The position numbers and the translations under genes are program-made. DNA of 64,000 nucleotides, from assembly GCA_030265395.1 (NCBI GenBank), contig JARFYF010000022.1, forward strand, positions 44,265,924 to 44,329,923. Direction: 5' to 3'. Origin of the DNA: Rhina ancylostomus. Its lineage: Eukaryota. The notes beneath the pieces are model-generated. The model was not told the origin of the DNA and did not search any database. It saw nothing but the letters and a program-made list of their open reading frames with translations. How positions within the stretch are numbered: position 1 is the first letter of the stretch; each line of letters starts with the position of its first letter. Positions 14,401 to 51,301 of this stretch are shown in pieces.

Positions 14401-17400
14401 TGAAGTCTGTGGGTCCAAAGTTTGCACTTAGTAGACCCGAACACATGGTAGGTATTGAACAGAATTTTGTTTAGTTCAGTAAATTCCAGAGAATCCAAGT
14501 GTAAATTGAGGGTTACTGACAGCTTCCATTAAACTTCATCAAGAGTGCTTTATATTAATCAATATTCAATATGGCTTCATAGGGAACATCATTGTCTATC
14601 TCCAACATTAAGATCAAGAATTCTTTCACCTCACCGTTAGACATTATGATTTGTTCATCACCCCAATCCCCTGAAGGTGAAATCAGGATGCAGGCTGATG
14701 TTTCCTCTGGTGTTGAGGGATAAACTATTAAATTGATGAACTGATCTCTGTAGAATCAGAATCCTGAAAAGAATAAATAGTGAATTAAATTTGGACCCCT
14801 CTTTCTAAACACAGGTACAAGAAGAACATAAAAGCTCTCTACATTGTCCACCCCACCAGGTTCATCACGGCACTCCTTGTTGTCTTCAAACCCATAATCA
14901 GGTCAGTTCAAGTCTGGTGATGTTTGCGTTGGGTGAAAAAATGCAAAATTATTAATTTTTTGCTTCTTACCACTGGTCTTTGTTGTCAGAGCATTTAGAA
15001 AGGGGAAAACAGTTGTGTTCCTAGGGCAAGAAAGTAAATATCTTGATTGGATGACTGCATTTCCTTTCATGGTAGCATAGCCTTCTGTCAAACATGGGTA
15101 TACATACGAATCCTACCTCTCTATTTAGGTTCTTTTACCATCTCTTCCAAATTCCTTTTTCCTATCCGTTCACTGCTTTTGTGCAGTAGCACCTTGGGTG
15201 CTGCCTCCCTCCCTTTTGTGCCCATTCAGTCAGGCGTGCACATATTCTCCCTTTTCCTCTCATACACCTTTGTGCATTCATATCCTCTGCTCCCCTATGC
15301 TCACTTGTGTGCAGATGCATGAGTATACACTTGATGACACTGCACAGTCAAGCATTCTGTCTGAACTCTTGTGAACGTGTGCTCGTGTGGACTCTCAGTG
15401 GCGCACATTGTCCAGACTCTCGAGAACACAAAATAGGAGAAGAAGTAGGCCACTCAGCCCCTCAAGCCTGACCCATCATTCAATATGATCATGGCCAATC
15501 TATGCTGGCCTCAACTCCTCTTCTGTGCTGATTCCTCATAACCCTTAATTCCTCGACCTTTCAAATATTTATCCACCTCCACCTTAAATATAGCTAACGA
15601 TCGGGCTTCCTCCACCCATGGGACAGAGAATGCCGGAGATTCACTGCCATCTGAGGGATGTTTCTGCACACCTCAGTTTTATGTAACTGGCCCATTATTT
15701 TGTAGTCATATTCCCTTGTTCATGACTCTCCCACTAGTGGAAACATCTCAACATCTACCCCATCAAGCCCTGTTAGGATCTTGTATGTTTGAGTAAGATC
15801 ACCCCTCATTCTACTAAACTCCTTGGAGTACAAAACCAAACTCTAATCTCTGTGTAGACTACAATGAAGAAAGGCCACTGCATGGTTGCAAAGGTTGCTG
15901 ATTGAATTTCCTGAGCAGCAGCATTGGGAGCCACTTTATGTGGGGCATTTAGCCCTTTAGATAGATTTAATTCTGTTTTATCTCCATCATCATTTTGCAA
16001 GTGAGTCAGAATCTGGAGTGATATAATGGACTTGTGAGTGGAGAGATCTGGCAAACAATGCAGCAATCTCACTTGTGCCTCTTCTGTTTCCACTTTATTT
16101 TTTTTTCTCTCCACTTCGGCTCCTGTTCCAGCATGAAGTTTGGCAGGAAAATCTTGTACATGAATCATTTGGGCGAACTTGAACATTACTTGAAATGTGA
16201 TCGAATGGTGATCCCAGCATGCGTGAAGAAGTAAGTCCAGGAAGATCATCCACCTGATGAGAATACTCTGTTTATTTCCACATTGCTAAAGCTGGTCCAG
16301 GGTCATTTTGGTGGAGGTATTACGATCATATTGTCTTTTAGGAGAGAGCCTAATTTTTCTGTTGTTTTTGAGTATTTATTAAGCATTTCATTCCATGCTT
16401 CGGAAGAGAGTCTGTCGTATAAATGTAATGGCCCAGGTTTTGCAGACTATTATCACCATTTACCCTTGTAACTGCTGAGTTTCCCCGCTGACCAATAATG
16501 GGATTTTTGCACAAATGTGGAGTCCCAACGTTGCAGTCAGGAATTTGCTTTACCGCACCCCCACCACCCCACCCCGGCTGTGCTCCAATATCGGACTCCT
16601 TTTTTTGAGCACAAAGCTGTAGGTATTCCCTACTGCTTCAGATGGGAGAATCTACCCGAGCAGCTTGTGTTAGACTTGAAGTGGGAGGTCCACCCCATTC
16701 ATTTCAAGAGAAAACTACAATAAAGAACTGAGGCTTTTGTTCTGGAAAATAAACCAGAGAATTTTAAATCATGTTAAGAAAAAAAATTTTTTTTCACAAA
16801 ATATACACAGAGGTTGTGTCTTGGCTGTCCACTAAAGTTTCCACAAAGATTTTGTGGGCATGACTTGTTCTGACCCTACCCCAATGTTCAGTGCCTTGCT
16901 GATGTGGACAAGTCTGGCCTCTCCTGCCAAGTTCCCACCCACCGAACCAGGCAAAGGCAACCAGAGGTTTTTTCATGGGGCGCTGGTAACTGTGAGCAGC
17001 TCCTGTTGACTGCAAATCCTGAATCAGTATCTGGATAGCGATAATGGACAGGCAGATAGCCTTAACTCTGTCAAACCATCTGCAGGTTAGGGTTAGGGTA
17101 ATATTTATAAGTCCTTTCGTCAACAGTATTTATTTAATGGTTTTAAGGTAATGAGATTTCTCAAAGTTTGCTTCAATGGAACTTTGTAGCTCAGCGCTAA
17201 ATGTTAATGTTGGGGATGTTAAGACAGATCCGAAATTAAATTGAACATTATTTAAAGCAGAAAGTAGGGAATTGGAGATCTAGGAAGTGAATTCCAAGAT
17301 TTAAAGGATAGGACGAACATTTATGACGATGTAGTTTATATTGGGAATTAGAAGAATGTTTGATTCTTTGGAAGACTGTTGGGGGGAGAGTAAAGGAGAT

Positions 17401-20400
17401 TGGAGGGACAGAGGTGGAGACAACAGATGTTCAAAAACATTTAAATCTGAAGCATTGCTCAACTGGACCATGTTGTTCAGTAGGCACAGAACTATGGATG
17501 AATGGGGCTTAGTGTGACTTGGGACACTGGCAGTACAGTATGGATAATTTTGCAGTGTAGAATGAGGGACGTAAGCCAGGGACAGTCTGAAATAACCAAA
17601 CCTTGAGGCAGCAAAGCGAGGTTGAAAATTTCAGAGCACTTGAGCCGTTATATGATGTTGCAGAGGTGTAAATAGGTGGCTTTGGTGAAAGCACGATTTT
17701 GCAGTTTGAAGCCCACCTTGGAAGTGCTAATGGTCTAGTTCACTTTTAAACTGAGTCAAAGAAAGGACTAAGAATGCAATGGGGGAATAAAGGCAAGGGA
17801 AATTCTTCACAGCCAGTTCTTAATGTCTGACAAACAGTGTGACAGTTTGGAGGTGGTGATGTGGAGCTGCATGTTGTCTGCATGTTTGGAAACTGTTTCA
17901 GGGTGATGTTGCCTAGGGCTCATATGTAACTGACAAATGGGACACCAAGAAGTAAAGGTAAACATGGGGGAAGAGAAGCCATTGCTGCTTTAGGTGCGAC
18001 TGGTTGGGTAAGAGTGGAACCAGGCAAGTGTAGTCAGAGCCGGCTGGTTGGCAGTGGAGAAGGATTAGAGGCAGCAGTGTGTTTAATGGTCCCAAAGACT
18101 GCAGGAGGGAGAACATTTGTCACAATCAAATTGTATCTGATTCATTACTTTTTCTGTACTGTGGCAGTGGAGGAAAGCTGATTGGAGGGATTCAAACAAG
18201 GATTTTTGGGGAGGATGCATATGAATTCAAGGTCCTACAACATACTCAAGGTTGTTGGAAGAGGGAAGGGTTAGTGATAAGGCCATAGTTGGCAAAGATC
18301 GTGGTCAAGTGTCTTTCTTAAGGATGGGATTAATAGGGATTATGGTAGAATGAGTTGGGATGGGGAGAGTGCAACTCATGGACTAAGTGAGCTTGGAGAA
18401 GGCACAAGTGGAGATAAATATCTCCCATTCTGATTGGCCTCTTTCCCTGACTGCCAATCCAGCATCCCCACTCCATGCTGAATTACACCACGCTGCTGCA
18501 TGTTGGAATTTGGAAATGCCTGTAGTTTTTTTTCTCCCCCTTTCTGTCTCCCATATTTCCAAGCTCAGCCCATTTTCTAACCTGCACAGGTTGATTGGTG
18601 ACCTGCTTTACAATTCCAACCTTCCTTTCTAACTGAGAAACAAAGGACTGCAGATGTTGGAATCTAGGTGAAAAGCAGGACCCGAAGAAACGTTGACCAC
18701 CTACTTTTCTCCACGGATGCTGCTTGGCCTGCTGAGTTCCTCCAGCATCATTGTGTTTTTCACTGCTTTCTAACCAGCTCGTGGGAATTATGCAAGAATG
18801 CCCTGTCTGTTTGCTGGCTGGTTGTGTCTTCTATTTTTGGCCTTACCATTTTTGTTTAATCATTTGGTGTACAATAGGGCTTGTGTGCAAATAGGTTGTC
18901 TTGTTTGGCCATAGGTTAAAAGGGATCCGAGGCCTTGTTTGAATTAATACTGAGATTTCATTTTTTCCATAGCTCTGTCTGGTAATCACATTGACCTTAC
19001 CCACTTCCATGTTGGATCATTATTTTTTAGGTTTGATGAGACTATCCGTGCAGCACAGAAACCTGTCCCACCAGTGCAAATAAAGCAACTGCCTCACCAA
19101 CAGTTTGGGATTGATCTTCCAACGTAAGTATTTACTGTACACTTTGTTTTTGTTGTTCTTTGCCTAATAGTGAGTAGTATTCTTTTAATCCCATCTAGTC
19201 TTCATTTGCTTACGGCAATGGTTCCTCTGAGTTCTAGTTCCATGAGCAACGGCATATCTCACTTAGGCTTCCATTTTTCACAGTTTAGTTCAGTGGGTCT
19301 TGGAATTGTGGTCGTAAGACCAATTCTGTTTTTGTTTGATGCCTATAATGTTCATGCTGTGTCTGCTACTGTTACTGGCTAAAGATTAGAATATTGATTC
19401 CACTTTCCTCTCCCTGTGCATTTTGGTATTTGCTTGCAGCCGGGGAGTGTTTGATCAAAGTTGCTGCATTTGTGTGGTGTGGATTTCCTGTTTAATGAAG
19501 GCATTTGATCCTCTGTGGACAAGCTTAGAGTGTTTCTGCTTGAGTATCAACTATTTGGTCCCCTTTTTCCTTGTAGGCATGTATTGTTTTCCCCATCTTT
19601 AATAATGGATCTTGCCTTTTGATTCAGGCTCAGAGCAAAAGATCCTGAAAAGAGGGCCATCCCACTGGTAATGGAGCAGACAGTCACTTACATCAAGGAG
19701 CATGGTAAGTGAAATGTACAGAAACCCAGAGGGAATCAACTGGACCTGACCCAAAAATCCTTTCTTCCCTTTCTCCCTATTAAATGTATTGATTTTTTAA
19801 TGGGACGCAGTGCCACAGACACTGAGAGACTACAGGAGGCATACAATGAGCTTTATTTATTTTCCCCCAACAATTTCTCACTAAAGTGAATGGAATTCTA
19901 ATAAACAACTCGTCTACACTTTTTATTGCGTAACTCAGGGTAAAGGTTTCTTGCTGGTATTGTTGCCTGGTGGAAAACCAGACCTGGAAGATTTAAAATG
20001 ATTGTTTTGTTTGCATATGATGAATATTATTTGCCTATCCTCAGGTCTAAACAAAGAAGGGATATTCCGCAGATCAGCTAACATGTGCTTGGTAAGGGAA
20101 GTGCTGGATAAATACAACAATGGTGAGTAAGTTACTGTACAAATAACATTGCCTTGATAACTACAAGGCAAAACTCTAAGTATCTGTTCACCCCCCACGA
20201 AAAGGTGACAAAACCTTTAGCCCCATTGATCTCTCTCCCCCTCCCCCTCCCCCTCCCCCTCTTTCCTTAACAGATGTTTGAATGTGACCTGGANNNNNNN
20301 NNNNNTGTTTTTTCCTGGAAAGAGATAGCTAAAACATAAAAAACCTAACCATGAGCATAATATTTGCTTTGGTGTCTCCCAGCCCTGCTGTTCTGTGCAG

Positions 20401-22503
20401 AGCATTACAGCACTGATGATCATCCTAACCCCTACACTTGGCAGGAGCACTGCAGATCAAAACCTCCAATTCGCGTGGCCGTATTGTGACCCTCAGCACC
20501 TTGAGGTTCTTGAACTGGTTTTTGCCCCCAGTTGTGCAAAGCGATAAGCAAGTTTAAATCACAGTTGTGAGTTGCACTGGATACTGCTCCCTGTTGATGA
20601 TGTGCTTGGATATCTTTCTGATAGCATCCATAAAGACACCACAGATTGTTGAGGAGGGCTTGGCAATTAATGTGCTTGGGTCTCTGTGCAGCTTCAGAGG
20701 CCTATTCTTTGTGCAGGGTCTTTATTATTCTCCAAGTTGAGTTGTTACTGGGATGCAGAAGAGCTGAGAGCTTTTTAGCACGAGAATGATTTTGTGTTGG
20801 CTGAGGCGTGCCTGATAAAATGAGCAGCAATGCTGGCTCACCAATCGTGCTTTACAAGGTTTCCAGATGAGAAAGGAGAGGTGGTTGCAATACTGGTTAA
20901 AGAAACAATTGCAGCGATTGGGAAAGGATGTTGTGCTAAAAAGACCTAAAGACAAAGCCACATTGGCAGAACTGTGGAACGAAAAAGGAGAAGTGACATT
21001 GCTGATTATCTGCTTTAGACCCAAGAGCAAAAGCACGAAGATTGAAGAACAAACATGTAGGCATTTTCTGTGGTGCAGAAGTCATATTAGTACAGTAGTA
21101 CTAGTGAACTTCAACCCCTCTAATGTATTGTATTCACTTAGCACTCAAGATGCCTTCCCGCTGGTGGAATAAATGCTAAAAGGGGTCATTATGTACATCG
21201 AGATGTATTACTGACGGCCCTGCTGTGCCGGGAACCTAGTTGAGGGCACAGCCCTTCCCTGGCGCTCTTGCAGCAATGAAACAGTTAAAGTGAGCTCATT
21301 GCCATAGGGCTTGGTGTGGAATGAGCCACCAAAGTAACATGCAAAGACTGCCTGCAAGGGCTAGTGTAGGGTGGGCTGGGGCGAGTGGTGTGGCCGTTCA
21401 CTGCTGAGATGTGGGGCTTAGGCTTGGGGGATTACTGGGGACAGGCACCAGTGTTGGCAGATCGTCCAGATCCCATGATCTCTCTCATCACCACCTGTTG
21501 GATATAATGGAAGCTGCAGTGTCTCTCTCTCTTTGTTTGGCTGCACAGCTCAGTTCAGTTCTCCATGATCTCTCCATGGCAATGAGCTTAACAGTGGTTG
21601 CTGGCTATTGAGCTCATTACTGTCGAGAAATCTCCACCAAACAGAATACAAGAAGGTACCTACCTGTGTCTGTTCAGACTCCAGAACCAAGAATGCTATC
21701 AGTGCTCTGAGTAAGTTGCCACTGAATTAACTGGGATAGAATCAGTGTCAAAAGTATGGAGGGAGCCAGATGGTATAGTGAGTCCAAGGCAGTTCTGGAC
21801 TGGAGAGTGAAGAGTGGGAAGCAGTAATAGGGAGCATTTAGGAGCAAGTAATTATAATTCAATTAGGTTTACTACAGTTATTGAAAGGATCAGTGTGAGA
21901 CCAGGAGTCATACAGCACGGAAACAGGCTGTTCAGCCCAACTGGCTGTTGGATCCGGTTATTTTCAAATCCACAGGTTCTTTCAGGAGTCCAGGAATGAG
22001 TTGAAAACAATTTGGTGCTTCGCAATGTTTTATTGGGAAAGTTTAAAACAAAGGAACAGTCATAGAGCACATGGCACCGGCTTTGATGAGCTGAGACAAA
22101 GGGAACAAAAGGAAGCTCAGTCCAGGGGAGAGGAAGAGCCAGAGAGAGATTAACAAAAGGACGACACCTTTAGCTAACAATAGTCCAATCAGGAAACCTA
22201 TTAGATACTTGTGGGCATACCAACCAATGAAAAAACCAGATATTCACCTGATGGACGAACCAATAAGCTAGTAAGCGGCCATTCCTTGTGCAGTCACTGG
22301 AGGTGTATTAAACACTATACGTGTTAAAAACTAAATCAAACAGTTGAATCCAACGTGGCCCATGACAACATAGATGTCCATCCAGGCTAGTCCCATTTGC
22401 CTGCATTTGCCCATATATTTCTAAACCTGTCGACTCTTTTGAAAGTTGTTATTGTACCTGCCTCAACCACTTCCTCTGGTAGCTCATACCATATATGGAT
22501 CAC

Positions 22504-22566
<63 letters not shown>

Positions 22567-25500
22567 AAAAAAAGTTGCCCTTCAAGTTCCTCTTAAAGAA
22601 TTAAGAATTTTTGCAATGAGAGTATGTTTCCTTGGAACATGTTGGATCATTTTAATTGGGTGTATAAAATTAAGCAGCTGAGGTCAGAAACTAGGGGAGG
22701 GGGAGGAAGAAGGCCATGGTTTTGAAGTAAGTAATAGGAAGATTAGAGGGGACATGAGAATTTTTTTCATCCAGAGAATGTTGTGGGAAGAGGGACAGTG
22801 GTCTGGAATTTGATGCCCAAAAGGGTTTTTGGATAAGGCAATGAGTTTGGGGCAGATTTAAAAAAAAATAAAAGCCCCAAATATGGGAAATCTGAAATGA
22901 AAACAAAATGCTGGAAACACTCAGCAGGAGTGAGTGTTTCCAGCTGCACCTACGGAGAAAGAAACAGGATTTCATTTCAGTTATTTTTTGACTGTGGGGT
23001 GGTTTTGTGAAATAGCTTTTAGTTCTTCCACTTCAGTTGAATAATTGCTCAGCAGCCAAAATCCGTGCAGTGCCTTAGCACATTACCAGGGATGAATATT
23101 AAGGGCAGGTTTCTTCTAATAATGGACAAATAACTCTGTACTCAAGCATTTAGTGGAAATTCTACCGCACTTGGACAACGTGGTCCCACCTTGTTGTCAA
23201 AGTGACAATAGCCCCAAGTTGTGCGGCAGGATAAAGGGAACATATTTTTGACTGGTGCACATAATGAACCTGCTAGTTTTAGTTAGTTTCTTAGCTGGAG
23301 AAGACAAAAGCATTGAAGTGAATTTCCTATTGGTCTCAAAATTGGAAACAGTGGAACTTCGTAGAGCTGTTTAAACAGTGGTGTCTTGTGTAGGTAGCTG
23401 ATCCTGGCCTTGATAACAAACCAGACAAGAAGAATTGAAAGGGGAGTTTTTGCATGTAACTCGTGATGCGAAACTGTGGGATGTTGAACAGACCTTATTC
23501 AAAAGAACATGAATTGCTCAGTACCTGGACTAACAGCATGTAATGGATTAGCTGGGAAGTAATTTCAGTGTGAAGGTGGAGTGGGCACGCACACAGTTCA
23601 GTCTTTAGAAACCAACAGTTTGGTTTTTTGTTATAAAACAAAAATGGAGTTTTATTTTCGAAAGTAGGAGGCTATTTCTTGATCATACATTCATCACTGT
23701 TGAACTGACTTTCCAAAGTGTGTGGCTACCTGCTTTTATTAGGAGCTTGATGTCAAAATTGTAGGTGTGACTTTGCCACCTATGTATTAGTGATATGCTG
23801 AGCATCTTTCACAGGAAGTAGGCTGAAACTGCCAGTGGCTTGCCAAAATTTTCAAGCTGATCTGTTTTCATCTTCTCATGATGGAAGAAACAGTTTGTCC
23901 CCTTTAAAGTAGCATCCAGTGTTATTGCATTATTAAATTCCAGACCCGTCCAAGTAGGATATTGCATTGTTACTTGCGGTAATACTGTAGCAGAATTTTA
24001 CATAAAAATTTTGACTCAGAAACAATTCGTTTGGGCTTGTTTTTGAATCCCCCACTTCAGCAGTACATCTGATCCCATGTGCCTGGTCCTGTTCTGTATC
24101 TTCCTGTCTTCATTCAACCACTTACGTCAGTGTGATCCTTTTCATTTGCTTGCTGATAGTGCAATAAACTTATTTGTACTCTTAACTCTGCATTACAAAT
24201 TCTGTGTCAACGTCCATGCCCTTCTAGTTGCTGTCTAAACGTTCATCACAAAACATTTTTATCAACCATCCCCTTACTTTCCCTTGCAGATTGTTTAAAA
24301 AAAGGACAGTTCTTTCTATGTCTTGCTTCGACTTGTTTCAGCAAGACCTGCGTGAATCTACACTTTATTCCTTAGTCATTGCAATTGAGCCCTTATCACA
24401 AAATGCAGGCGTGGTATGCAGGGTGAGAAGAGGAAGAAGGAACCGCACAAGGTTTTTGAAAATGTGCGCTACCTTTCTTTCTCTTGAAGAGCAGGAGAGG
24501 AAATAGTGCTAAATTGTATTGTCCACCCTTGGATAAGCTGTGAATGAAAGCGCAGAGCCACCTCAGACTGGTACAGAAGAACACGGGGCAGGAGAAGGCC
24601 AACCGGCCCGTCATCTACCCTGCTGTTCAATATGATCATAGCTGATCTGTAGTGGCTTCAACTCCACTTCTGTGCCAGTTCCCCAGAACACTCAAATTCT
24701 TCAGTCTTTTAAATATTTATCTATTTCCGCCTTAAACATATCTAATCATCTGGCCTCTAGCACCCTCGGGCAAAGAATTCCAGGGATTCACTACCCTCTG
24801 AGAGAATAAATTTCTACACACCTCAGTTTTAAATGATCAGTCCCTTATTTNNNNNNNNNNNNNNNNNNNNNNCTCCATTCACGACTCTCCCACTAGTGGA
24901 AGCTAGTAGCCTGTCAATAGATTCCATGCTGCTCCACGTGATAAGAATGGCTGAGTAAAGTGTCGCTGTGGTCTAGTCTGGAGATCTGTGCTATGGTCTT
25001 TGGAGATAATGTTGGGGGTGAGATTTGGACTTCCTCGTGACTATAGTTTGCTGACTGTTTTGATTGTCTGTTGTCGATCAGTCTTGGGTTTAATTCTTTC
25101 TAAAAAGATAAACCTTAACCCTGTTTACGAGCTCCATCATATCAATTTGAGGATCATCCAAATTGTGCCAAGTGAGATGGAAGTTCCAAATAAAATGGTG
25201 ACTGCCAGACAGATAATGAATTTGTGTATGAACTTTTCTGCTGAAGTTGCATGTAGGCAGCAGCAGAAAGTGGAACCACAAGTTGTGGGGAGGCAGTGGT
25301 GACCTCCACGTCATCCCATTCAACAAACAGAACTGATCAAAGCAGGCTGGTCACTCAGTTCCAGCTTTGAATGCAATATTCCATGACACTTACTTTGCTT
25401 TAATATGTTGTGTAACGTGAGGTTCTTACTGAGAACTACATCATTAGAAAATGCATTGTGAATTTTAATATTTGGGACAAGCTCGTGATGTGAAGTGTCA

Positions 25501-28500
25501 CATTCCACTGTGAGTGGGTTTTCGTTGATCATCTAACTTATTGCAGGCAGTTTGGTCAGAGATGTGTTTCTGTAAGATACGACCCTAAATTGTGACCTCC
25601 CTGCAGGTGTTCCTGTGGATTTTGCAGTCTATGGTGATGTACACTTGGTGGCAGTTATGCTGAAGACCTTTCTTCGCGAATTACCTGAACCTCTGCTGAC
25701 CTATGACCTGTACAACCAAGTGGTTTCATTTGGGAGTAAGTTGCACTCTTCAGTCAACATTTGGAATTGTTCTTTATTGCATCTTGCTCCTATTTGAATT
25801 GGAATTTTCCAAAAATCATCTTCGTCTTGCAAGATCTGGTAAACTTCCATTTCAAGGACTCCCATCTATGATGAAAGCAAAGAATTACTTGGGACCCTAG
25901 TTAGGTTTGACTCATGAAATTGTCCTCAGATAAATCTAAGCTTTGTTCAGTTGATTAATTATCACCCCTTACTGATGGTCACAAAGTGATCCACAGTTTT
26001 GCTCTGCTTCCCCACCTCTAAATAGAAACACTTCTCTGTCTGGCCTATTGAACCTTTTTTTATCATCTTTTTAAAAACCTGTGAGGTCTCTCCATAACTT
26101 ACTTTATTTTAAGAAAGCTTGTTCAGTCCTTCCTCGTGAGGGTCAGGGCAAATATTAACCAACTGACCACAGCTCAAAAGAACCCTGGGAGCTATCTTTG
26201 AGAATGAGGTAGCAGGGCTACAGGGAATAACGGGAGGAGGAGAACAGCTGATGGGATTGCTCTGCTGGGAACTAACGGGGATTCGATGGGTCACGTGGCT
26301 TCCTTTGTCATAATAAGAAAGGGTGCCGTGAATTAATGCTGAGACAATTAAGAACAATTTAGAGCGAGATCCACTTTCCACTGTGCCTAGTCTGGGAGTA
26401 CTTGCTGGTGTACCTGAAATGGAAGGCTGGCATTTTCAATGTCAAGCATTTCACTAAAAATCATGGCCTCGACATCAATTTCTCTAACTTGCAGCACCCC
26501 CTCGCCTCNNNNNNNNNNNNNNNNNNNNNNNNNNNNNNNNNNNNNNNNNNNNNNNNNNNNNNNNNNNNNNNNNNNNNNNNNNNNNNNNNNNNNNNNNNNN
26601 NNNNNNNNTCTCTCTCACACACACACACAGTCTCTCTCTCTCTCTCACACACACAGTCTCTCTCTCTCTCTCACACACACTCTCTCTCACACACACACAC
26701 ATATTCTCTTTCTCTGACACACACACCCTCTCTCTTTCTCTCTCACACACACCCTAAATCTCTCCTACCATGATAGTTCCAGGTGGGAAGGAGTTGTGTT
26801 ATGAGGAAAGATTAAGAAGACTTGGACAATACTTTCTGGAATTTAGAAGAATGAGAAATGATTTTATTGTAGCAAGATTCTCTGATGGCTGGTAGGGCAG
26901 ATGTTCCCTTGTCAGTGAATCCAGAATTGGAATAAAGTATTAATGCTATTCTTCAGCATGTAACTGCTGTAAACAGGATGCATGCTCATTGTTAAATGGA
27001 TAATTGACTGCAGGAAACAGCATCTTGATGACCTCTCAGATGCCCCCAACGACGTCTCCTGACAACTGAATGCACAGGGTCCAGCTCTTCATTACAAAGC
27101 AACTCAATTTAAAATGCTGAGCATGTGCAAAAGCATTGAGATTTTCCTCCTCCTGTGTTACCTTGGCTGTGGCCTCTTTCAGTTTGGATCATTGAAATCA
27201 TAGTCATGGGCCACAGACACATAGCAAGACAAGGTGAGAGGATCAGTGAACAAAAGCAATTTCAATAGTTTAGGTTCCTTTCTAAACCCTGTCATTCCTC
27301 AAACTCGGAGAGCCGCACTTGAGGGGTGTGTGGGTCATGCCTTCCTAAAACCTTTCCTGTGTGTCGGTAGGTAATCTACCAGTATATAACAGTGGCGCCA
27401 GACAGAGCTTCTACCTTAACCTTTCAACCGAAATTTAACACTGCTGCTGCTCCTAATTAATATATTATGATTCTATGAAAAGCATCAAATTCAGGAGTCA
27501 AATCCATTTTTGTTTAATTCACTTTCAGATGCAAGGGAGTAATTTTGTCCTACAGATCAGTGTTTTGCTTTGTAGATGAAACTTCAACAAACTCTGCAAA
27601 TATTTCACAACATGTTTCCTACATTACAGCAGTGACTGGCTTTGGGGTCTCCTGAGCTGCGAGGTACTTTATATACATGGACATCTTTCCTCTTTTTAAG
27701 TATTATCACTCTCTCTGGGATTCCTGTAAATGTTTTCACAAATCTGGGGGCCCAGTGCAAATATTAACACACTCTTGGAGATTTCCAAGTATTAGGTAAA
27801 TTCTAGAGGCCTCCTGCAAATATTTAAAGACTTCAATGAACCCCTGTAAACATTAATAAGACTCCTTGGGATTCTTTGCAGATGCAAGCACACTTTGAGA
27901 GACCCCATGGTAACATTAGCACAGTCCTAAGGACCATTTGCAAATATTATCATACTCCTAGGGATGCTTTGTAAATAATGACCTGTTCCTGCAAAACCCC
28001 CATGAACAAACCCTTAAGGAACACCAAAGGTTCCGACACTTTGCTGGGGAAGCCCAGTCCCAATTCTTGGAAGCAAGGAGGGAAATTTGTCAAATACAAT
28101 TCCCCTTTCATAAAACCATGCTGACTCTGCTTCATTAATTTTCTAAATGCCTTGCTATTACCTCCTTAATAATGGATTACAGCAGTTTACAAGTGATAGC
28201 TATCAGTCTAACTGGCCTATTCTTTCCTGCTGCAACAAACAAGATAATGGAGGAACTCAGAAAGTCAGGCAGCATCTGTGGAGGGAAATGGGCAGTCGAC
28301 ATTTCGGCTTGAGACCCTTCATCTCAACAGTCCAGGTGAAGCGTCTCGACCCAAAATGTCGACAGCCCATTTCCCTCCATAGATGCTGCCTGACCTGCTG
28401 AGTTCCTCCAGCATTTTGTGTGTTGCTCCAGATTCCAGTATCTGCAGAATCTCTTGTCTCCATTTCACTGAAAATGTTGTTTTAAATAATTTTTGCAGTA

Positions 28501-31500
28501 TATTTCAAATGCTGCCTTCATTCCTCAGCCAAATTGAAACTGCTACATTTCAGAAATGATCTGTTTTAAAATTTTTACACAAATATTACTTCAACTAATG
28601 AGAATGGTCCAAAACTAAAACAACAGCTCAGTCACGGAACAGTAACTCCTCAAAGTGCAGTGACAGTAAAGCTAGTCATGGTGAAGGTGTCTGCTGGTGA
28701 CTGTCAGCACACTGGGAGGTGGGAAGGGGACCCTGCCCCAGAGCCAGCTGTCTGCACCCTCACAAGCTTAATTTCCGTGCTGCAGTGTGGGGACGTAACG
28801 TCCCTTTTCCTGAAGCAGCTCCGTCTCAGTGGAGCAATCAACCGGAACCTCTCAGCCTCAGGCTTGTCTGGCTGAAGCCAATTAGCTTCATTCCTGTAGC
28901 TAAAGGTTGGTGTGCACTGAGTGGGGAAGTAAGAAACTGCGATATTTTAAAAATGTATTGCTCCCAAAAACCTTTTTCTCTGTGGTCTTGGATCAGCAGC
29001 AGCAAACATCTCTAAAGCTCCGGTTAGCTGCTTAATGAATTTACTGCTGCCAATTGGAACACAGTAACAGGATTTGGCCAGGACGATATCATCCTCTGCT
29101 ATTACTGTGAATGGGAAGATGCTTTCATTTTCTAACTCCCACTGTAAGCACAGTTTTGATCTGCCACGGAAAATGGTAAACAACATTTCATCATTAGGTG
29201 GGTGCATCCTGGTGAATTGCCATTGTCTTATGTGATCTTCATTGAATCCAATGGTATTTGCATTCTTGTGCCCGCTGTAGTTAGGTTGTGTACATCTTTT
29301 GTGTAACCATTTCCCTTTCTCTCACTGATTTTCAGAAGTGCCAGTAAGTAACCAAGCAGAAACCATCGCGAAGATGATTCAGACACTGCCTAAGGATAAC
29401 TTTGTGGTGCTGCAATACCTGTTGAACTTGCTGCGATTGGTAAGATGGTGGCCTTATCATCCAGTGTTTAACTGTGCCAAGTTAGCTGATTGGTGGCACT
29501 ACTGCCTACAGTTCTCCTGCACTGGGTTTATTGTGAGTTTGGGTTTGAGATTTGTTTTGTGTAGCAGTGCAGACCTTTTCTCCATTGGCAGTCCCATAGA
29601 ATTGAGGGTGACTTGCTTTCACTCTTGTCCTGAGGAGTGGACGATGCCTGTGAATGAATCCTTTGAATGTGAAAAGGCCATTGCGCAGCGGCTGCTACAC
29701 GTGGCAGTGTGAAGTCTTGGTCCATTGGCCAGGAGGACCAAGACAATTGGAGACCAGACTTTGCTGCACAGACTTGGTACACGTGTATTTGTTGACAGGC
29801 ATAATCATATAGCGCACTCATAAGTAAACCCTCTACGCATGCACAGTCTTGCCACACTCTCTTCCTCAGCACCCTCCCTGATCTCAGTCACCCTACCTCT
29901 GCCTCCTCAATCCACACCCCCCCTCACCAAACTTCACTCTACACAGTGTTTTCAGGTGTTAGGAATGTCATTCTCCTCTCTCACCGATCACTCACCCCCT
30001 ATACTATCTTGTTCATTTGTAAGGAATAGTCGAGAAGCAAAGCAGTGTCATTGATTAAAATATTCAAAACAAAAATTGAGCCTTGTACTTTCCAAAATTC
30101 AGTGGTCTAAGTGTGCAAACCTTTACAAAATCAACATAAATAGTGGCATCATTATAAAAACAGGCATTATATTCCAGGAGCTGCTTTGTATTTGAAACCA
30201 TTAATTATATAGTAAGCGGTTGTTATGCTAATTCTACTAAATATTTACCTCACACTTGTACTGGTTTCAAGATGCACCTTGTAGTCTTTTGAGAAAATAA
30301 CTTTTGCTGAGTCTTGCTCAACACATTCACACTTGCACCAGAATTATTGCTGTGATCTCCAACCCCTCATCAGAATGAGGCATATTTAATCACATCCTCA
30401 GAATGCTGACAAAGTGAAAGGCTGATTGTAGCAAGTTGGGAACAATTTTAGCACCATTAGCACTATAGAACAATTCAACACTTTGTTCATATAAAGTATG
30501 GTCAGACAACTGACAAATAGTTACACTTCACAAGTTGAACTTCTGGAAAAACGTAGTTGCAAAAAATGTAGATGACACCAAAATGAAAATTTGCCAACAC
30601 TGGAGAATTGCAGTAGGCCATGAATTGTGTCAGAGAATGGAGCTACAAGTGTTGGATTTTACATTTTGGAAAGAAAACTAAGGTTGTTTGCAAGCATACA
30701 GATAGGAGTTCTAAGATGCCAAAGAATAGATGGTCCAAGGAGTCCAGGCACACACATGACACTATTAGTAGTGATGCAGATTAACGAGACCATTAGGGGG
30801 AAAACGAATNNNNNNNNNNNNNNNNNNNNNNNNNNNNNNNNNNNNNNNNNNNNNNNNNTGAACTTATTGAACCTTGCTGGAAACAAACTAATGCATGCAG
30901 TTTTGGTCACCAAATTATAAAATGACGTGGCGGCACTGGGCTCATAGACTGATGAACTGCGACGGGAAAAGATGACAGACTGAACTTCAGAATTATGAAA
31001 AGCTTGGTTAGCGTACAAAGGGAAGATCAAAACTTGAATCCATACATTTATGATTCGAAAGAAAGATTTGACTTTTTATGTGGCTTTCATAGTCTCGAGC
31101 TACAGTCGACAGTGGAGATCTACTCACTGTTGCAGTACAGGACAAGTAGCAAACTTGCATAAACTGCAATGTAATGACCATGCAGTCTCCTTTAATAATA
31201 CAGTTTGAGGGATAATTATTGGCCTTGTGGTCAAATGGTACTTGGATGTGTACTAGAAGACCTGTGATGTGTAGGCCTATGAACACAGTGTTGGGTAGCT
31301 CTCTTTGAAGTGGTGTGGATGTGGGCTAAACATCCTGTTTCTTTGTTGTAACCCTCCTGTGACCCGTACAGCCCTTTGCAATCCCTGCGTTCTCTGGAGG
31401 AAGTTAAGATGGGAACAGGGGTCATGGAGGGATTTGAACCTGGGAATAAGAGCTTTAAATTCAAGTATGACTGGTATAGGTGCTCAAGTGCAGGGTTATT

Positions 31501-33442
31501 GAGTAAGTGAGACATTGTATGAGTTGGGATTTGGGCGGCAGAGTTTTGGATGGTGTAAAATGGGAGCCCAGCCAGGAGACTGTTGGAATAATGAAGTTGA
31601 GAAGGGACACAGCCTGGGGTTTGGAGTTGGGCAGTGTTGCGTTTTAATTGTGGTGAGGGTTTCTGCCTCTTTCTTTCATACAGTGGATCCAGTAGGTGAA
31701 AAATCTTTACTCTTTTCCCCTCCACTTCTAGTTACTTCATGATTTCTGGTTTTAAGGGAAGCAAGCCTTCTTTTAANNNNNNNNNNNNNNNNNNNNNNNN
31801 NNNNNNNNNNNNNNNNNNNNNNNNTTTTTTGCTTTTAGTCACAATTTTCCAGCCCTGGCAACATCTTCGTAAGTATAGGCTGACTTTGTGCCTACATAGT
31901 ACCACAGTTGTCACGTGACTGGAGCTACAGTGTCTGGAAATGCAATTGATTTTCCTTCAGGTCGTGCACATGAGTGAAGGGAGTCCTTAGCATTTGCATC
32001 TGGGATTAGCTGCGGACTTGGGGGTTGGTAGAAAAATGAACACAATTCTTTGATAAGTCAAAGTTGCAAGACACCTTGCCTCTTTCTGTGAGCTTCAAGT
32101 CATCACTGTCTTTCTTTGCACATGGCCCCTTGGGATCAAGGATGAATCGCTCCGGTTCTCTGGGCTGAGATGTAACTAGTGAGGACAATGTAGTGTTACG
32201 TACTAGCAACAACAGAACACACCAAATCATGTATAAGTGTTAGAAACTATCTTATTAATAACTACTTATGATAATAAGAAAAGTAAAAATGTTAGATATT
32301 AAACATTAACCCTAAAACTAAACTTGAAGTGTGTGTGTGGCAAATTCCCAAACCCTAAGTCTAGGAATAGTTCTCAAAGTTCAGTTCAGCAAGTCATCAG
32401 GTGAAACATGAGCAAAAGCTTTTGCAAAACTACTATTGACTGAAGAGAAAATGTAGAGAGAGAATAGTGAGAAATTACAAAATCCACATGTTCCACGAAG
32501 GAACCCATACAACACCTCAATCACTGATGACCTCCACTGCTTTGTTACGAAGTATCTGCCACCCCAAAGGCATTCGATATGGCTGCCCACACAAATACCT
32601 GTTTCCCTCTACAGGTTAACGACAAAGTGGACTCCACTTGTTTGCTCCAAAAATCCATATGTGGATTGTATGTGACAGTCACAGCTTATTGTTCTTCATT
32701 CATTGTTATGAAGACCAGCAGTCAGTCGCGCTGTCTCTCGCTCTCTCTTCCCCCGCCTCCCCCCCCCCCCCCCCACCGACTCACTTTGAATCCCTGAGTA
32801 AAACAGCCAGCACATTGTCACAGCAGCAAGAAGATAACAACACCACACACAAACACTACCATAAGTCCAGGTGCCTTAAAGGGACATTCACCAAATNNNN
32901 NNNNNNNNNNNNNNNNNNNNNNNNNNNNNNNNNNNNNNNNNNNNNNNNNNNNNNNNNNNNNNNNNNNNNNNNNNNNNNNNNNNNNNNNNNNNNNNNATAA
33001 CAACACCACACACAAACACTACCATAAGTCCAGGTGCCTTAAAGGGACATTCACCAAATAGCAACCTGGCTCGTAACAGTCGGAACTTCCACAGATGGGC
33101 CGGGTGAGTGGGACCCTGAGGCATAGTCCAGTGGCAGAAGCAAAGTGAACTCGAGGGGTTTTAAGTAATTCCCACTGAAAGAGCAAAGTCCGTCCCAGAT
33201 GTCTGATTTATTAACGTGACTGCATTGTGTTTCCTGTCTGCTTCCAGGTCGCTGACAACAGTGAACTGAATAAAATGACGCCATCCAACCTGGCTCTGGT
33301 GTTTGGGCCCACACTCATGTGGGCAAAGGATGCTGCAATTTCACTCAGTGCCATCAACCCCATTAATTACTTTGTTCAATCGCTCTTGGAAAATTATCAT
33401 GAGATATTTTCAGCCTCTTCTGAAAAAGCTTTAATGTCTTAA
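2319..33442 (+). CDS. ARHGAP1: Rho GTPase-activating protein 1-like (BCH/Sec14 + RhoGAP), whole spliced CDS, 12 coding exons, 443 aa
   Basis: Exon lengths 151+99+88+132+87+99+93+77+78+129+104+195 = 1332 nt, all GT-AG with matching phases. Motifs [66 protein letters not shown] and [16 protein letters not shown] match p50RhoGAP/ARHGAP1. ARHGAP8 is not fully excluded. Confidence 0.85.
2635..3368 (-). mobile_element. Penelope-like retroelement 3' part: degenerate GIY-YIG endonuclease plus terminal repeat (pLTR), interrupted by N gap 2749-3174
   Basis: Minus-strand frameshifted peptides CNLLCISET / [21 protein letters not shown] / [25 protein letters not shown]; terminal repeat 2635-2748 is shared with 28248-28460. 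Confidence 0.75.
3835..4030 (+). mobile_element. LINE 3' end remnant (Rex/Babar-like)
   Basis: atcggatttctgaacagtccatgaa...cactgtactgctgccacaa...atttcacatcatatatgtcag; same tail family as 50325-50405. Confidence 0.5.
4445..4835 (+). mobile_element. SacSINE1/Deu-domain SINE, near full length, diverged
   Basis: Collinear blocks gatgttaaa...gatcccatagcactat...aatatttatcc...aacatcattaaaatagattatc...attatcacattg and tail ggcgctgcataaa. Confidence 0.65.
6075..6400 (-). mobile_element. RTE-clade LINE 3' fragment
   Basis: Minus strand encodes DVLKASLK; tail gaagcaagtcgttcttgatccaaggaactgcc; related copy at ~47000-47200. Confidence 0.6.
6460..6575 (+). mobile_element. RTE-like AP-endonuclease fragment (degenerate)
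   Basis: Frameshifted ETR..GQFNEQG..YTFW..LHGVDFA-like peptide. Confidence 0.4.
7203..7550 (-). mobile_element. HE1/V-SINE-like tRNA-derived SINE, diverged
   Basis: Reverse complement has ggcacactggcgcagc head, tttgcacattttccccat V-domain and ggttaattgggt. Confidence 0.6.
8619..8717 (+). CDS. ARHGAP1: RhoGAP coding exon 2 ([32 protein letters not shown])
   Basis: ttaaccag| acceptor, cag|gtgggt donor, 99 nt, phase 1-1. Confidence 0.9.
9350..9442 (-). mobile_element. SINE 3' tail fragment with (TTAAA)n
   Basis: Reverse complement matches 13850-13912 (ttgttgggccggaagggcct). Confidence 0.6.
9956..10043 (+). CDS. ARHGAP1: RhoGAP coding exon 3 ([28 protein letters not shown]), BCH domain
   Basis: cctacag| acceptor, ca|gtgagt donor, 88 nt. 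Confidence 0.93.
11839..11970 (+). CDS. ARHGAP1: RhoGAP coding exon 4 ([14 protein letters not shown]...YREFDR), BCH domain
   Basis: cactag| acceptor, aa|gtaagt donor, 132 nt. Confidence 0.94.
13331..13550 (+). mobile_element. CR1 LINE 3' end
   Basis: Encodes NVFTQQVV...[22 protein letters not shown]; tail ctgtaaccattctatgatt. Confidence 0.7.
13683..13914 (+). mobile_element. HE1/V-SINE-like SINE
   Basis: A-box-like tagcatagtggttagc, B-box-like ggttaaattcc (13730-13740), V-domain ttctccccgtgactgcatgggtttcttctgggtgctccggttt, CR1-type tail. Confidence 0.8.
14815..14901 (+). CDS. ARHGAP1: RhoGAP coding exon 5 ([28 protein letters not shown])
   Basis: acacag| acceptor, ag|gtcagt donor, 87 nt. 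Confidence 0.94.
15424..15840 (-). mobile_element. CR1 LINE 3' fragment
   Basis: ataggagaagaagtaggccactcagccc...aagatcacccctcattctactaaactcc; homologous to 24576-24900. Confidence 0.75.
16132..16230 (+). CDS. ARHGAP1: RhoGAP coding exon 6 ([32 protein letters not shown])
   Basis: Long pyrimidine tract and ttccag| acceptor, aa|gtaagt donor, 99 nt. Confidence 0.93.
17440..17900 (-). mobile_element. L2-like LINE fragment, very degenerate
   Basis: Nucleotide resemblance to the L2 ORF2 C-terminal region also seen at 31380-31620. Confidence 0.35.
18633..18760. mobile_element. Internally deleted, inverted Penelope pLTR-derived element
   Basis: gactgcagatgttggaatct joined to gaaacgttgac...gatgctgcttggcctgctgagttcctccagcat. 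Confidence 0.6.
19031..19123 (+). CDS. ARHGAP1: RhoGAP coding exon 7 ([30 protein letters not shown]), linker
   Basis: ttttttag| acceptor, ac|gtaagt donor, 93 nt; QQFG motif that precedes the GAP domain. Confidence 0.9.
19628..19704 (+). CDS. ARHGAP1: RhoGAP coding exon 8 ([25 protein letters not shown])
   Basis: attcag| acceptor, g|gtaagt donor, 77 nt. Confidence 0.92.
20045..20122 (+). CDS. ARHGAP1: RhoGAP coding exon 9 ([25 protein letters not shown]), contains the arginine finger
   Basis: cctcag| acceptor, g|gtgagt donor, 78 nt; GIFR arginine codon cgc at 20068-20070. Confidence 0.94.
21946..22355 (-). mobile_element. Solo LTR, 410 bp, 4-bp TSD TGGC
   Basis: Termini tgttggatcc / gaatccaacg, tggc on both sides, minus-strand AATAAA at 22034-22029, three CCAAT boxes. 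Confidence 0.75.
22506..22562. repeat. (GT)n microsatellite
   Basis: Uninterrupted tg run visible in the sequence. Confidence 0.97.
24576..24900 (-). mobile_element. CR1 LINE 3' fragment
   Basis: Collinear with 15424-15745 (ttcaatatgatcat...gactctcccactagtgga). Confidence 0.75.
25607..25735 (+). CDS. ARHGAP1: RhoGAP coding exon 10 ([42 protein letters not shown])
   Basis: ctgcag| acceptor, a|gtaagt donor, 129 nt. Confidence 0.95.
26609..26752. repeat. Compound (CT)n/(CA)n microsatellite next to a gap
   Basis: Visible in the sequence. Confidence 0.95.
27716..27980. repeat. Degenerate minisatellite, ~30-bp period
   Basis: Recurring gg(a)ccc..tg(c/t)aaa(t/c)att..cacactc units. Confidence 0.55.
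28248..28460. mobile_element. Palindromic Penelope pLTR-derived element with two degenerate hammerhead-like cores
   Basis: 28248-28322 is an imperfect inverted repeat of 28336-28410; same family as 2635-2748. Confidence 0.75.
29336..29439 (+). CDS. ARHGAP1: RhoGAP coding exon 11 ([34 protein letters not shown])
   Basis: tttcag| acceptor, ttg|gtaaga donor, 104 nt. Confidence 0.93.
31380..31620 (-). mobile_element. L2-clade LINE ORF2 C-terminal fragment
   Basis: ORF 31231..31725 contains [20 protein letters not shown], typical of L2 (LDYSN.LL.GLP...QN.AAR). Confidence 0.7.
32194..33078. mobile_element. Solo LTR-like insertion (about 720 bp after removing the gap artefact)
   Basis: Termini TGTTACG...CGTAACA; flanks gtag / gtcg form an imperfect 4-bp TSD. 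Confidence 0.65.
33248..33442 (+). CDS. ARHGAP1: RhoGAP last coding exon ([40 protein letters not shown]...ALMS*)
   Basis: ttccag| acceptor, phase 0, TAA stop ending at 33442. Confidence 0.95.
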   Translation, partial: VADNSELNKMTPSNLALVFGPTLMWAKDAAISLSAINPINYFVQSLLENYHEIFSASSEKALMS

Positions 33443-36400: not shown

Positions 36401-37988
36401 ACGTGGTTTGTGCTTTTGCATTTAGTAGCAATAGTGGGCAAATAAACTACAAATGGAGGAGGGGGGTTGGTGTTGGAGGGAAGTGTTCTTTCTGACTGAA
36501 TGGGTTCAGCCTAGTTGTAGGGATCTTGTGAAGAAGTATCTTGCCTGATGATTTTTCTGGATGTCCATCAGTCACTGGGGAAGCCCTAACCTATTTCCTG
36601 CCGAGAATTGAGGCACAGGTTATTGGCAAGGGCACTGAGTGTTGGAGAATCACAGCATTAAAGAGAAAATCTTTAAGCAATGTTTGTCCTTTCGGCTACA
36701 TGTACCACTGTAACTGTATCTGCTCTTTGGTGAGGAAATGGCTATGATTAATGTTTATAGAACTAATGCAACCATCAGTCATTTAAAGTATCCTCTGACT
36801 GAGAACTTATTGCAATGCTGTAACCAGAATCCAAAGGTCTAAGCCCACTTGTATGGGGAGAGACAGCCTACGTTCTATTTGCAGCAGTACAAGGGCCAGT
36901 GATGCAAGGAAAATCTTTTTTTGTACCACATTGGAAGCAAATATGCAGTTACTGAGTCAATTTTACATTAACCCACAATCTTCATATTACTTTTGAGCAC
37001 ACTTTACTACATTGTTACTTCTCCTCCCTTGAGATAGAGTTGTATCTTTGGACTTTTTAATCTTTTATTACATACGAGTTTTTGCTGTATTGTTTTTCAG
37101 TGAGGGAAGGACTATTAAGATTTTGACGCAGGAATGTTAGACAGTATTTTAAAGATGATTAATCCTGCTTCCCTAAGTAATATTTTGTCTTGTACTGCTT
37201 TTACATGTGTTAATATATATTGTTTCCTGTGCACCTCCTCTTCTGTCATTGGTGCGAGTATCTAGTTGTCACCTACAGTTTGTGGGTGGATGTTAATACG
37301 AGAATTTGGAAATGTAATGTCAAAGTTTATAGCAAACTTTTTGTACAGAACCACATTTGATTCTCCATACTATCCTCATCTGATAAAATGTGTATTTTTT
37401 TTCCTGTCTTTAAACAATGTTTACACATATTTTGGAGATATTTAAGTTTGTAGCAAGTTTTTTTTTCCCCCAGTAATTAATTCCTGGGTATTACCCTTCC
37501 TGTCCCCTTCTCTGTGGATAGGATCTGATCAAAATGTGCAAGATGTAACCTGTCTCTTAAGGACTGTACTTGAGATTTAATGTACAGGAATGAGCAAAAT
37601 GAGATAAAGCGTGACTGTTTCTAGATGTTAAAAAAATTGCTGCTTGAGACATTATCTTCTTTGAAGTAGTGTTTCTAATCCCAATGCCTTGGATTTGGCT
37701 GTTAGATATTCTGATTTAATTGTTTTATCATGGCCCTCAATGTGAGGATGCGTTGGGCTGTTAGGCCCCAAGGCCAACTCTGAAGTGGGGTTGCTGTCAT
37801 CCAGGAGAAGGCCAGCTTCCACAGTGCCAAGTACTCAGATGTGGTATTTTATTGCATTCTGGTCCTATCGTTTTAATTTCTGATTTCCAATATCTGTAGG
37901 GCTTTATTGCCTGTTTTTTGATTGGTCATTCATAGAAAATCATTGATGCTATGTGGAGCTACAGGCTTTCCTGTTTTGCTTTGTTGAT

Positions 37989-38239
37989 CCAAGACTATCT
38001 TCCAGCTCTAGGGTAGTTCCTGTAGAATTTTTCTATTGAAAGTTTAAGTACACTTGTATGTTATGGTTTTTTAATTTCTGGGTGTTTTATAACTTGGCTA
38101 ATCGAAGTTGAAGCACATTTCTTATATATAATATTTTGACAAGGGTAGTCCAGTGGTCGTACATCTTGCCTGAATAAATTGCCATATTCGTAGTGTTACT
38201 GTTTTTGGTTTCCATTGTGGTAGGGTCTATAGGTTGGTA
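37989..38239 (+). repeat. Diverged direct duplication, copy 1
   Basis: Aligns by eye with 39139-39388. Confidence 0.9.
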
Positions 38240-38790: not shown

Positions 38791-39138
38791 TGCCTTCCTG
38801 AACCAGATCTTGCTTTTTGAATACTCTGGCTGAATCTCTTGTTCTCCTGGTAGCAGATATAATGACAAAAAAATTGATTCAGCTTTAAATATGCATTTCA
38901 TGTTCATTATTAGGACAAAACCACTTGCAGTCTCTTACTTGTAGAAGGGCAAACAGGCAGTACAGGTGGGCATAGAATGTGTGGTTTCTCTCAGCTAAGT
39001 ATTTCAATGGTAAGAGAGTAACCAGAGAGAAAAAATAAAGGTTCCTGTAAGGACTAAGGAATCAATCTGTGCATGGAACTAGTGGATGAATTTTTTCTTC
39101 CTTTGTATACCTGTGGCCACTTGAAGAAACCTTTTCTT

Positions 39139-39388
39139 CCAAGTCTATCTTCCTGCTCTCTGGTAGTTCCTGTAGAAGTTTTCTATTGAAAGTTTAAGTA
39201 CACTTGTATGTTTTGGGTTTTTTATAACTTGGCTAATCAAAGTTGAAGCACATTTCTTGTATACAATTTTTTGACAAGGGTAGTCAAGTGGTTCTACATC
39301 AATCTCTGTGTACATCTTACCTGAACAAATTGCCATACTTGTAGTGTTACTGTTTTGGTTTCCATTGTGGTAGAGTCATAAGTTGGTG
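39139..39388 (+). repeat. Diverged direct duplication, copy 2
   Basis: Shares ttctattgaaagtttaagtacacttgtatgtt and later blocks with copy 1. Confidence 0.9.
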
Positions 39389-46900: not shown

Positions 46901-46907
46901 CCCCCTC

Positions 46908-46993
46908 CCCACAGATGCTGCTTGACCCTTTGAGTTCCTATAGTAAATTGCTTGTTGCTCCAGATTCCAGCGTCTGTAGTTTCCTGTGTCTCC
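46908..46993 (+). mobile_element. Penelope pLTR-family fragment
   Basis: cagatgctgcttgacc..tgagttcct...gttgctccagattccagc matches 28380-28460. Confidence 0.65.
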
Positions 46994-46995
46994 AT

Positions 46996-50200: not shown

Positions 50201-51301
50201 AGGTAGTTACCCATGCCATTGTCCGAGTTTGTGCTCACTTCCCTAGTCAGCGAGGGCCATTGGCAGGTTGCTTGATGAAAGGGGCATCAAAGGAAAAACA
50301 CGTAAATAACGATCAGGATCAGATTTATTATCACTGACATACGACTGGAAATTTATTGTTTTGCGGCAGCAGTGCAAATTTCACGTCATATGTCAGTGAT
50401 AATAAGATGATGAGATGATTTTTCTTTCCCCCCGGGATACAACTAAGTTGTGGTTCTCCTACCCTTCCTCAAGCCAAGTTGTGTTGGATTTAGCAGATAA
50501 AACAATAACTTGAATATATATAGCACCTTCAATATACCACAACAATCCAAGGTACTTAATACAAGAATACAGCAGAACATTCTTTGCACAACATTCACAT
50601 GAATAGAGTAAACCGTACTGTACAATGTGCTGAGTCCTACACTAAAAAATGGGGACACCAAGGCTATAAGGGGCAACAGTAGATCACAGCCAGGAGACTC
50701 CACTATTTAAAGTGCAAGGAGAAGTTCATGATTTGACATTGGACGTTTGAACTAGCTGAAGGATAAATAGGAACCAATAGTTGCAGGAAACAGTTTCACT
50801 TTGGGTGCACTATCAAAGATGATCTTTGATATTCTACTTGAAAGACAACAGGGGACGTGTGAATTGTACAAAAAGCAGACCTTGAAGGTCCGAACTCCCA
50901 AGATTAGGACAATATCTGAATCTTTTTTGTTTAAATGGGCTAGCAAGGAAGACTTAACAGTTAACTGGTCTATTTCAATGTTGTCCAATACATTAGCTGC
51001 ACAGCCCTTGAGAGTGGTTAGGGAAGTGGTCTCATGCTCATTTGCTCAGTGTTTGTATGTGTACTTGAACCTTTGTGGTTTTTTTAACTAAAATAGTGAT
51101 GAAAGCAATGTGTGAAAGTTTTAATGTCAATATTACTGTTACTTGTCTTGGTAGATACTTGTTAAATAAATATACATTTGTAAAGTATACTTGCATTCTT
51201 TGAGTGCTTAAAAATTCATTTTCTTGTAAATTTAGTGCCAAAATAGTGTCATGCTTGAGGTTAGCCAGTGATTTTGACTGGAGAACAGTATTCTGCATGT
51301 T

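Follow-up and report, generated by a model that had tools for sequence, protein, structure and literature searches.

The palindrome in the analysed stretch of Rhina ancylostomus DNA (64,000 nt, hereafter the window) very probably consists of two pseudo-LTR (pLTR) stubs of a Neptune/Nematis-type Penelope-like element (PLE), joined head to head, one with a tail and the other without. Taken as a whole, a single PLE insertion is the best explanation and, in our judgement, a very likely one; that it was primed from both ends of the target is only somewhat more likely than not. The insertion is real but unremarkable, and its layout of inverted pLTR plus tail is already known. Its palindrome arose in a single old event, appears to have decayed neutrally and is now an ordinary fossil.

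Overall, the palindrome measures ~230 bases. An initial annotation had described a long imperfect hairpin with arms of ~75 nt; the hairpin was confirmed, but its arms (28227-28324 and 28334-28431) are 98 nt each, with 85% complementarity and a spacer of 9 nt. The predicted RNA fold has −149.1 kcal/mol, a stability reached by none of 200 shuffles (z=−17.1), and in the host pre-mRNA the predicted hairpin would form a long double-stranded stem. On the plus strand the arm runs on, unpaired, for ~35 nt past the pairing to 28462, a stretch to which the initial annotation had drawn no separate attention. The palindrome and both hammerhead-like motifs quoted in that annotation are present in the sequence as given there: the plus core reads CAGGTGA (28333-28339) and then AAAAT GTC (28353-28360), and the minus core reads GAGATGA (28325-28319) and then GAAAT GTC (28305-28298).

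Compared with the family, the minus-strand half is an inverted, tail-less pLTR stub at 28232-28328 (family positions ~0 to +97; 85% identity to the family majority, 84 of 99 positions). The plus-strand half is a forward, tailed stub at 28328-28462 (family positions ~−2 to +133; 88% identity, 116 of 132). The 5′ end of the plus arm given by nhmmer (−28) is an artefact of the palindrome, and the end was taken from the sequence itself. The two stubs meet in the head-to-head layout that had been annotated, with a junction at 28323-28333; each arm starts at the 5′ edge of its hammerhead, and the same junction length was found at L005 and L018. The ~35-nt extension at 28427-28462, present on the plus arm only, is the PLE 'tail', placed as in the layout described in PMC3846280 and PMC8557442.

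The origin of the repeat can be read from longer copies, some of which extend upstream via a pyrimidine-rich stretch into coding sequence. At L121, a reverse transcriptase (RT) frame of 302 codons lies upstream of the repeat and is 68% identical to a protein named from Chiloscyllium punctatum; relatives of this RT protein are annotated with RT, PF26215 and GIY-YIG. An RT frame with a C-terminal GIY-YIG domain is joined to the repeat as its pLTR at five loci (L121, L129, L131, L141 and L142). Pfam matched one of five broken frames (RVT_1, below cut-off). The order at L131 is the end of the GIY-YIG domain, a stop at 540, the pLTR with the hammerhead from 829, the tail and an ATG at 997, after which 738 codons stay open to the contig end. 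This locus represents a sister subfamily whose pLTR has 79% identity to the reference, and it shows a partial tandem in which one ORF ends before the pLTR and another starts after it. The position of the repeat, behind the GIY-YIG domain and ahead of the start codon of the following ORF, supports the Penelope pLTR origin proposed in the initial annotation.

By eye, the L131 translations contain a CX4CxxC linker (of the CX2-5CxxC type, between RT and endonuclease) and a DKG motif. These features fit an element of the Neptune/Nematis type as described in PMC8557442, a placement made by linker and DKG motifs. The clade call draws on the annotations of the L121 relatives, the L131 translations and the ORF-bearing loci. 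Among 30 such loci, L146, L151 and L160 have their 5′ break joined immediately to an inverted pLTR stub, and the window element can therefore be regarded as the short end of a continuum. L131 (G000:C2762:100-3287) appears to be a young sister PLE, parts of which are matched by one run's contigs with 0-4 differences; this sister family is possibly still intact.

A 32-base arm motif matched the 2.2-Gb genome exactly at no fewer than 8,229 sites and a CpG-tolerant core pattern at 5,569, with 0 matches for the reversed-pattern control in both cases. By rough extrapolation from five arms in ~63 kb, arms would number ~10^5 in the genome and palindromes would number thousands. The family arm search located three single arms in the window: two tailed arms of the same family at 2634-2748 (minus strand) and 46907-46995 (plus strand), and a tail-less arm of a related subfamily at 18679-18761 (plus strand). 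The GAAAC-bearing copies that had been reported near 2735 (minus strand) and 18690 are present.

We catalogued 246 arms from the window and from loci selected solely by the downstream motif (557,634 bases searched, not counting N). L101 and L102 duplicate L124 and were left out of the adjacency, junction and end counts; 14 loci with overlaps were excluded from the target-duplication, subfamily-marker, core and 5′-edge base counts. The two pairs of L104, which lie on either side of a gap and may be a single pair duplicated by the assembly, were kept. Adjacent arms formed 38 head-to-head, 4 tail-to-tail and 5 direct pairs. Head-to-head pairs made up 38 of 208 insertions (18%) in this sample, which was not chosen for inversion; it comes mainly from exact-motif loci in the first 24 Mb of one contig, and palindromes get two chances of being picked, so that 18% may be high. 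The remaining 170 insertions were single arms.

The 3′ ends of the arms were bimodal, at +85-104 and +130-137, where numbering starts from the G that precedes the core. Single arms had the same distribution, with 96 tailed, 71 tail-less and 3 unclear. One tailed and one tail-less arm were combined in 30 of the 36 scorable pairs other than the window copy (p=3×10^-5 against an expectation of 50%); four pairs were tail-less twice and two were tailed twice. The tail was found on either arm of the pairs. The combination of 5′ ends was distinct in 35 of 37 pairs, again without the window copy. Flanks shared at least 7 nt in 26 of 80 pairs (all loci, including window-like picks), compared with 1.9% of mismatched flank pairs, and 54 of the 80 stayed below this mark for target duplication. 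The longest word shared by the flanks of the window copy is 4 nt, and no target duplication is visible there. Because the junctions are distinct, the tails mixed and the target duplications often the insertions' own, we conclude that every insertion builds its palindrome anew, with no other palindrome as the template.

The family core has a 5-bp stem I, the box CUGAUGA, one bulged A, a 4-bp stem II with a CUCG loop, GAAA and the palindrome ACGU, with which a stem III is possible only between two molecules. This is a small correction to the annotation, where stem II had 5 bp and a 2-nt loop. A real family copy folds with stems I and II, and the CTGATGA consensus that had been proposed has 163 exact copies in the genome (control, 0). 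A comparison with Rfam and a family consensus were among the checks suggested together with it. The Rfam scan of the window (E≤10) reported no hammerhead family, and the family consensus has an intact core. A match to RUF6-5 in the window (33 bits; gathering threshold, 70) was rejected, as it merely reflects the hairpin.

No compensatory changes were found in stems I and II among 227 arms, which showed single-sided decay only, and the covariation test at stem pair −1/34 gave p=1.0 for the same arms; one family has little power in either case. The hammerhead call thus relies on the motif, its pairing and its resemblance to PLE hammerheads in the literature, with hammerhead definitions taken from PMC6155905 and PMC6765202. 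On these grounds the minimal type I hammerhead with an intact consensus and a palindromic ACGU stem III, as initially annotated, is supported at the level of the family. All core bases were kept in 23 of the 127 core-spanning sampled arms, and ACGU as well in 8; the loss is mainly CpG decay.

The window holds two decayed minimal type I hammerheads, identified by sequence reading and fold, at 28328-28365 on the plus strand (nominal cleavage after 28360) and at 28293-28330 on the minus strand (GAAA intact). U4 and A6, together with G12 and C3, matter for hammerhead catalysis. The plus core has A at U4 (the subfamily state), A6>G, a C-C mismatch in stem II, G12>A, C15.2>U and a mismatch in stem I, and it gave no hammerhead fold (−4.4 kcal/mol). 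In the minus core, the changes are C3>G, A at U4, a G-G mismatch in stem II, C15.2>U and damage to the 5′ strand of stem I. C3, G8 and G12 are named as key hammerhead bases in PMC6155905/PMC6765202 and PMC11167929. With core bases and stems checked, an intact catalytic core is absent from both window copies. Both ribozymes are likely dead, judging from their sequence, in agreement with the inactivity expected in the initial annotation.

Moreover, the plus core is predicted to pair with the inverted arm in the host transcript (mean pairing probability 0.86), and in this layout even an intact ribozyme would therefore be blocked. In functional terms, the suggestion of a ribozyme on each strand does not hold here: one transcript contains one sense core and an antisense copy that pair together, which makes a dimer impossible.

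Both window arms belong to a subfamily with the ancestral box CAGATGA, in which A replaces U4. The CAGATGA core had 41 exact matches in the genome (reversed-pattern control, 0), and U4>A was found in 37 of the 127 sampled arms, about a third. A4 is linked to CC at +37/38, which was present in 81 of 86 A4 arms compared with 21 of 98 U4 arms (p=1×10^-25). The CAGAUGA subfamily, with its own linked markers, has amplified despite a non-canonical hammerhead box.

The 5′ ends of single arms pile up at one edge. Among the 87 single arms that end between −45 and +45, 34 had their 5′ end at −5 to +3 (p=6×10^-13). Base counts put the edge at −1 or 0, where both window arms start. At the cleavage site (+29 to +33), only 2 of the same 87 arms ended (p=0.96). 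We rejected a fossil of ribozyme cleavage on account of this lack of enrichment; the few pairs in which an arm has its 5′ end at +31 coincide with the self-complementarity of stem I and are indistinguishable from its effect. The sequence at the edge is a pyrimidine tract followed by AG and is also an initiator-like word.

The pile-up could be caused by a transcription start, by a splice acceptor like that of D. virilis Penelope, where the intron end is a pyrimidine tract plus AG (PMC4209133, PMC2377424), or by an RT stop at stem I. The signal for a cap-derived G at the edge was not convincing: the base at −2 was G in 8 of 26 short copies, with 20% as background. TATA-like words at −32 to −26 gave a weak signal (16 among 69 long copies), and a first exon common to the short copies was not seen in their upstream sequence. 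Contigs on L131 had no GT-AG joint at the edge among the 15 joints listed of 240, and such contigs cannot decide splicing.

We propose that the element protein would cut both target strands and that each target 3′ end would prime reverse transcription. One cDNA would start at a distal site (the tail, ~+135) and the other at a proximal site (~+95). Both would run to the 5′ edge of the hammerhead and be joined head to head, often via short self-complementary stretches from the hammerhead stems. The joined copy would then decay neutrally, and we saw no sign of selection for the hairpin. We lean towards priming from both target ends as the step that builds the palindrome. An anole PLE protein is described as cleaving and extending both strands; it initiates at two neighbouring positions within the RNA, one at either end of the tail, is predicted to act as a dimer, and works just as well on RNA whose hammerhead has been mutated (PMC11167929). 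Together with this assay, the bimodal 3′ ends of single arms suggest two internal start sites, and the 71 tail-less arms among 170 single arms indicate that the proximal end is a start site in its own right.

The published reading of head-to-head inverted pLTRs is different. In Adineta, an inverted pLTR with an optional 31-bp tail at one end and a target duplication was read as self-priming on an antisense template (PMC3846280), and the inverted-pLTR scheme is also found in PMC8557442, PMC8969392 and PMC2377424. Applied to the present family, one cDNA or antisense template would snap back on the stem palindrome and be copied to just before the tail. Subfamily markers do agree between the two arms of a locus (33 of 34 and 26 of 32), and such arms resemble each other more closely (0.836) than arms taken from different loci (0.789; 59 of 66); several junctions (L103, L104, L105, L175, L098 and L124; as seen by eye) lie on the self-complementarity of stem I or stem II. 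However, among the 30 mixed pairs there were 12 whose tail-less arm extended beyond the 5′ end of the tailed arm by 10 nt or more; the reverse was true of 8, and the ends lay within 10 nt of each other in 10. In those 12 pairs each arm holds at least 10 nt that are absent from the other, so that neither was the template of the other. Tail-less ends are, in addition, common among single arms.

Since neither arm contains the other in these 12 pairs, we favour both-end priming over simple fold-back, which we consider rather unlikely. Both-end priming has points against it as well: central deletion of a longer palindrome could mimic unequal arms, 6 of 36 pairs were not mixed, and target duplication was below the 7-nt mark in 54 of 80 pairs and is not visible at the window copy. 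A more detailed version of both-end priming is tentative. A protein dimer might prime both cut strands at start sites in the 5′ leader of the RNA, the cDNAs might run off at the first base of the hammerhead, and the stems might join them, the CAGAUGA subfamily having been amplified in the same way. If this is true, hammerhead cleavage would be dispensable in vivo.

The initial annotation had interpreted the palindrome as a non-autonomous, MITE-like or retrozyme-like unit. A search did return 82 matches to full-length palindromic look-alikes at 78-85% identity from the 40 scored of 3,879 candidates, and a few junction lengths recur (L001, L005, L018). An element that spreads as a palindrome is nevertheless not supported, given the distinct junctions (35 of 37 combinations), the asymmetric ends with the tail on either arm, and the predominance of single arms (170 of 208). 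Long copies with an ORF, too, are capped by the inverted stub, and the antisense arm masks the sense core. As for a retrozyme-like derivative, animal retrozymes are described as head-to-tail tandems (10.64898/2026.07.22.740005); here the layout is head to head, without head-to-tail units, and direct pairs in the catalogue were few (5, against 38 head-to-head). We regard this interpretation as highly improbable.

The palindrome lies in an intron of an ARHGAP1-like gene (CRAL-TRIO/BCH plus RhoGAP domains) at 25738-29335 on the plus strand, with bounds taken from predicted exons: one predicted coding exon ends at 25737 and the next starts at 29336. The gene was identified by CRAL-TRIO matches and by similarity to Rho GTPase-activating protein 1 (E=2×10^-18). 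It occupies 2330-33400 of the window on the plus strand, with 12 or 13 predicted coding exons, and a 51-nt candidate exon at 6130-6180 fixes the numbering of its introns. The annotated position within a host intron is thus correct, and its number, given as 10, is 10 or 11 depending on this exon. Contigs of a run from another organism cover both outer boundaries of the palindrome, where the inverted arm meets the left flank and where the tail meets the right flank, which suggests that the insertion is shared with a relative and is older than a species split.

That the host has adopted the hairpin to regulate the ARHGAP1-like pre-mRNA through editing, splicing or small RNA would suit the strong predicted stem and the apparently shared insertion but is very improbable, as the arms are 85% identical, close to the average pair (0.836), differ from the majority by 12-15%, which is ordinary decay, and lie ~870 nt from the nearest predicted exon, with thousands of similar palindromes expected by extrapolation.

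Several other repeats were seen in the window. A short AT-rich, near-perfect palindrome at 50324-50408 gave weak scores with miRNA-hairpin models on both strands, far below gathering, and is probably a small DNA transposon remnant. A direct duplication (37988-38227 and 39138-39377) has 88% identity over copies that lie ~1,150 bases apart. Near-identical direct repeats at 32834-33059 and 58860-59057 flank 100-base runs of N and are probably assembly overlaps. Unclassified dispersed repeat families were found at 9382-9439 and 13849-13906, at 7329-7383 and 51444-51498, at 15479-15622 and 24626-24770, and at 22360-22513 and 63565-63746.

The inverted pLTR plus tail and the hammerheads on opposite strands were known before (PMC3846280, PMC8557442, PMC4209133). 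Literature searches found, within the library covered, no paper on this PLE family, on the U4A hammerhead variant or on twin priming in PLEs; supplements and Repbase may hold such reports. The family statistics bear on how PLEs build an inverted pLTR with a one-sided tail, and on the role of the hammerhead. Mixed arms, pairs in which each arm has private sequence, and 5′ ends at the edge rather than at the cleavage site yield predictions within reach of the existing in vitro PLE assay. The fossil is of wider value only as a hint that PLEs of this kind probably use both ends of the cut DNA to copy their RNA.

Among known systems, Pen2a_Av of Adineta and Penelope of D. virilis share with the present family the head-to-head inverted 5′-truncated pLTR, the 30-40-nt tail at one end, target duplications of ~8-15 nt (not visible at the window copy), partial tandems and an RT with GIY-YIG (PMC3846280, PMC8557442, PMC2377424). 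In contrast to those PLEs, the window unit consists of two stubs of ~100-135 nt with no coding sequence, and its family has a very high copy number. The hammerheads of metazoan PLEs share the short stem I, the bulge between A9 and G10.1, the G10.1-C11.1 pair and a palindromic 15.2-16.2 without loop 3; the window cores differ by several substitutions, and the U4A variant is absent from the part of PMC4209133 available to us. Dual hammerhead motifs lying 100-700 bp apart on opposite strands are read in PMC4209133 as truncated PLEs.

Animal non-LTR retrozymes resemble the window unit in being non-coding, PLE-related and equipped with a type I hammerhead (10.64898/2026.07.22.740005). They form tandem arrays with a hammerhead in each unit, whereas a head-to-head pair gives no two sense ribozymes per RNA. 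Poseidon PAc of Anolis shares the two adjacent 3′ ends that bound the tail, downstream of the hammerhead, and its ends likewise do not accumulate where the hammerhead would cleave. PAc is a Penelope/Poseidon element whose ORF starts inside the hammerhead (PMC11167929), whereas the linker found here points to Neptune/Nematis and the first ATG of L131 lies ~170 nt after the hammerhead start.
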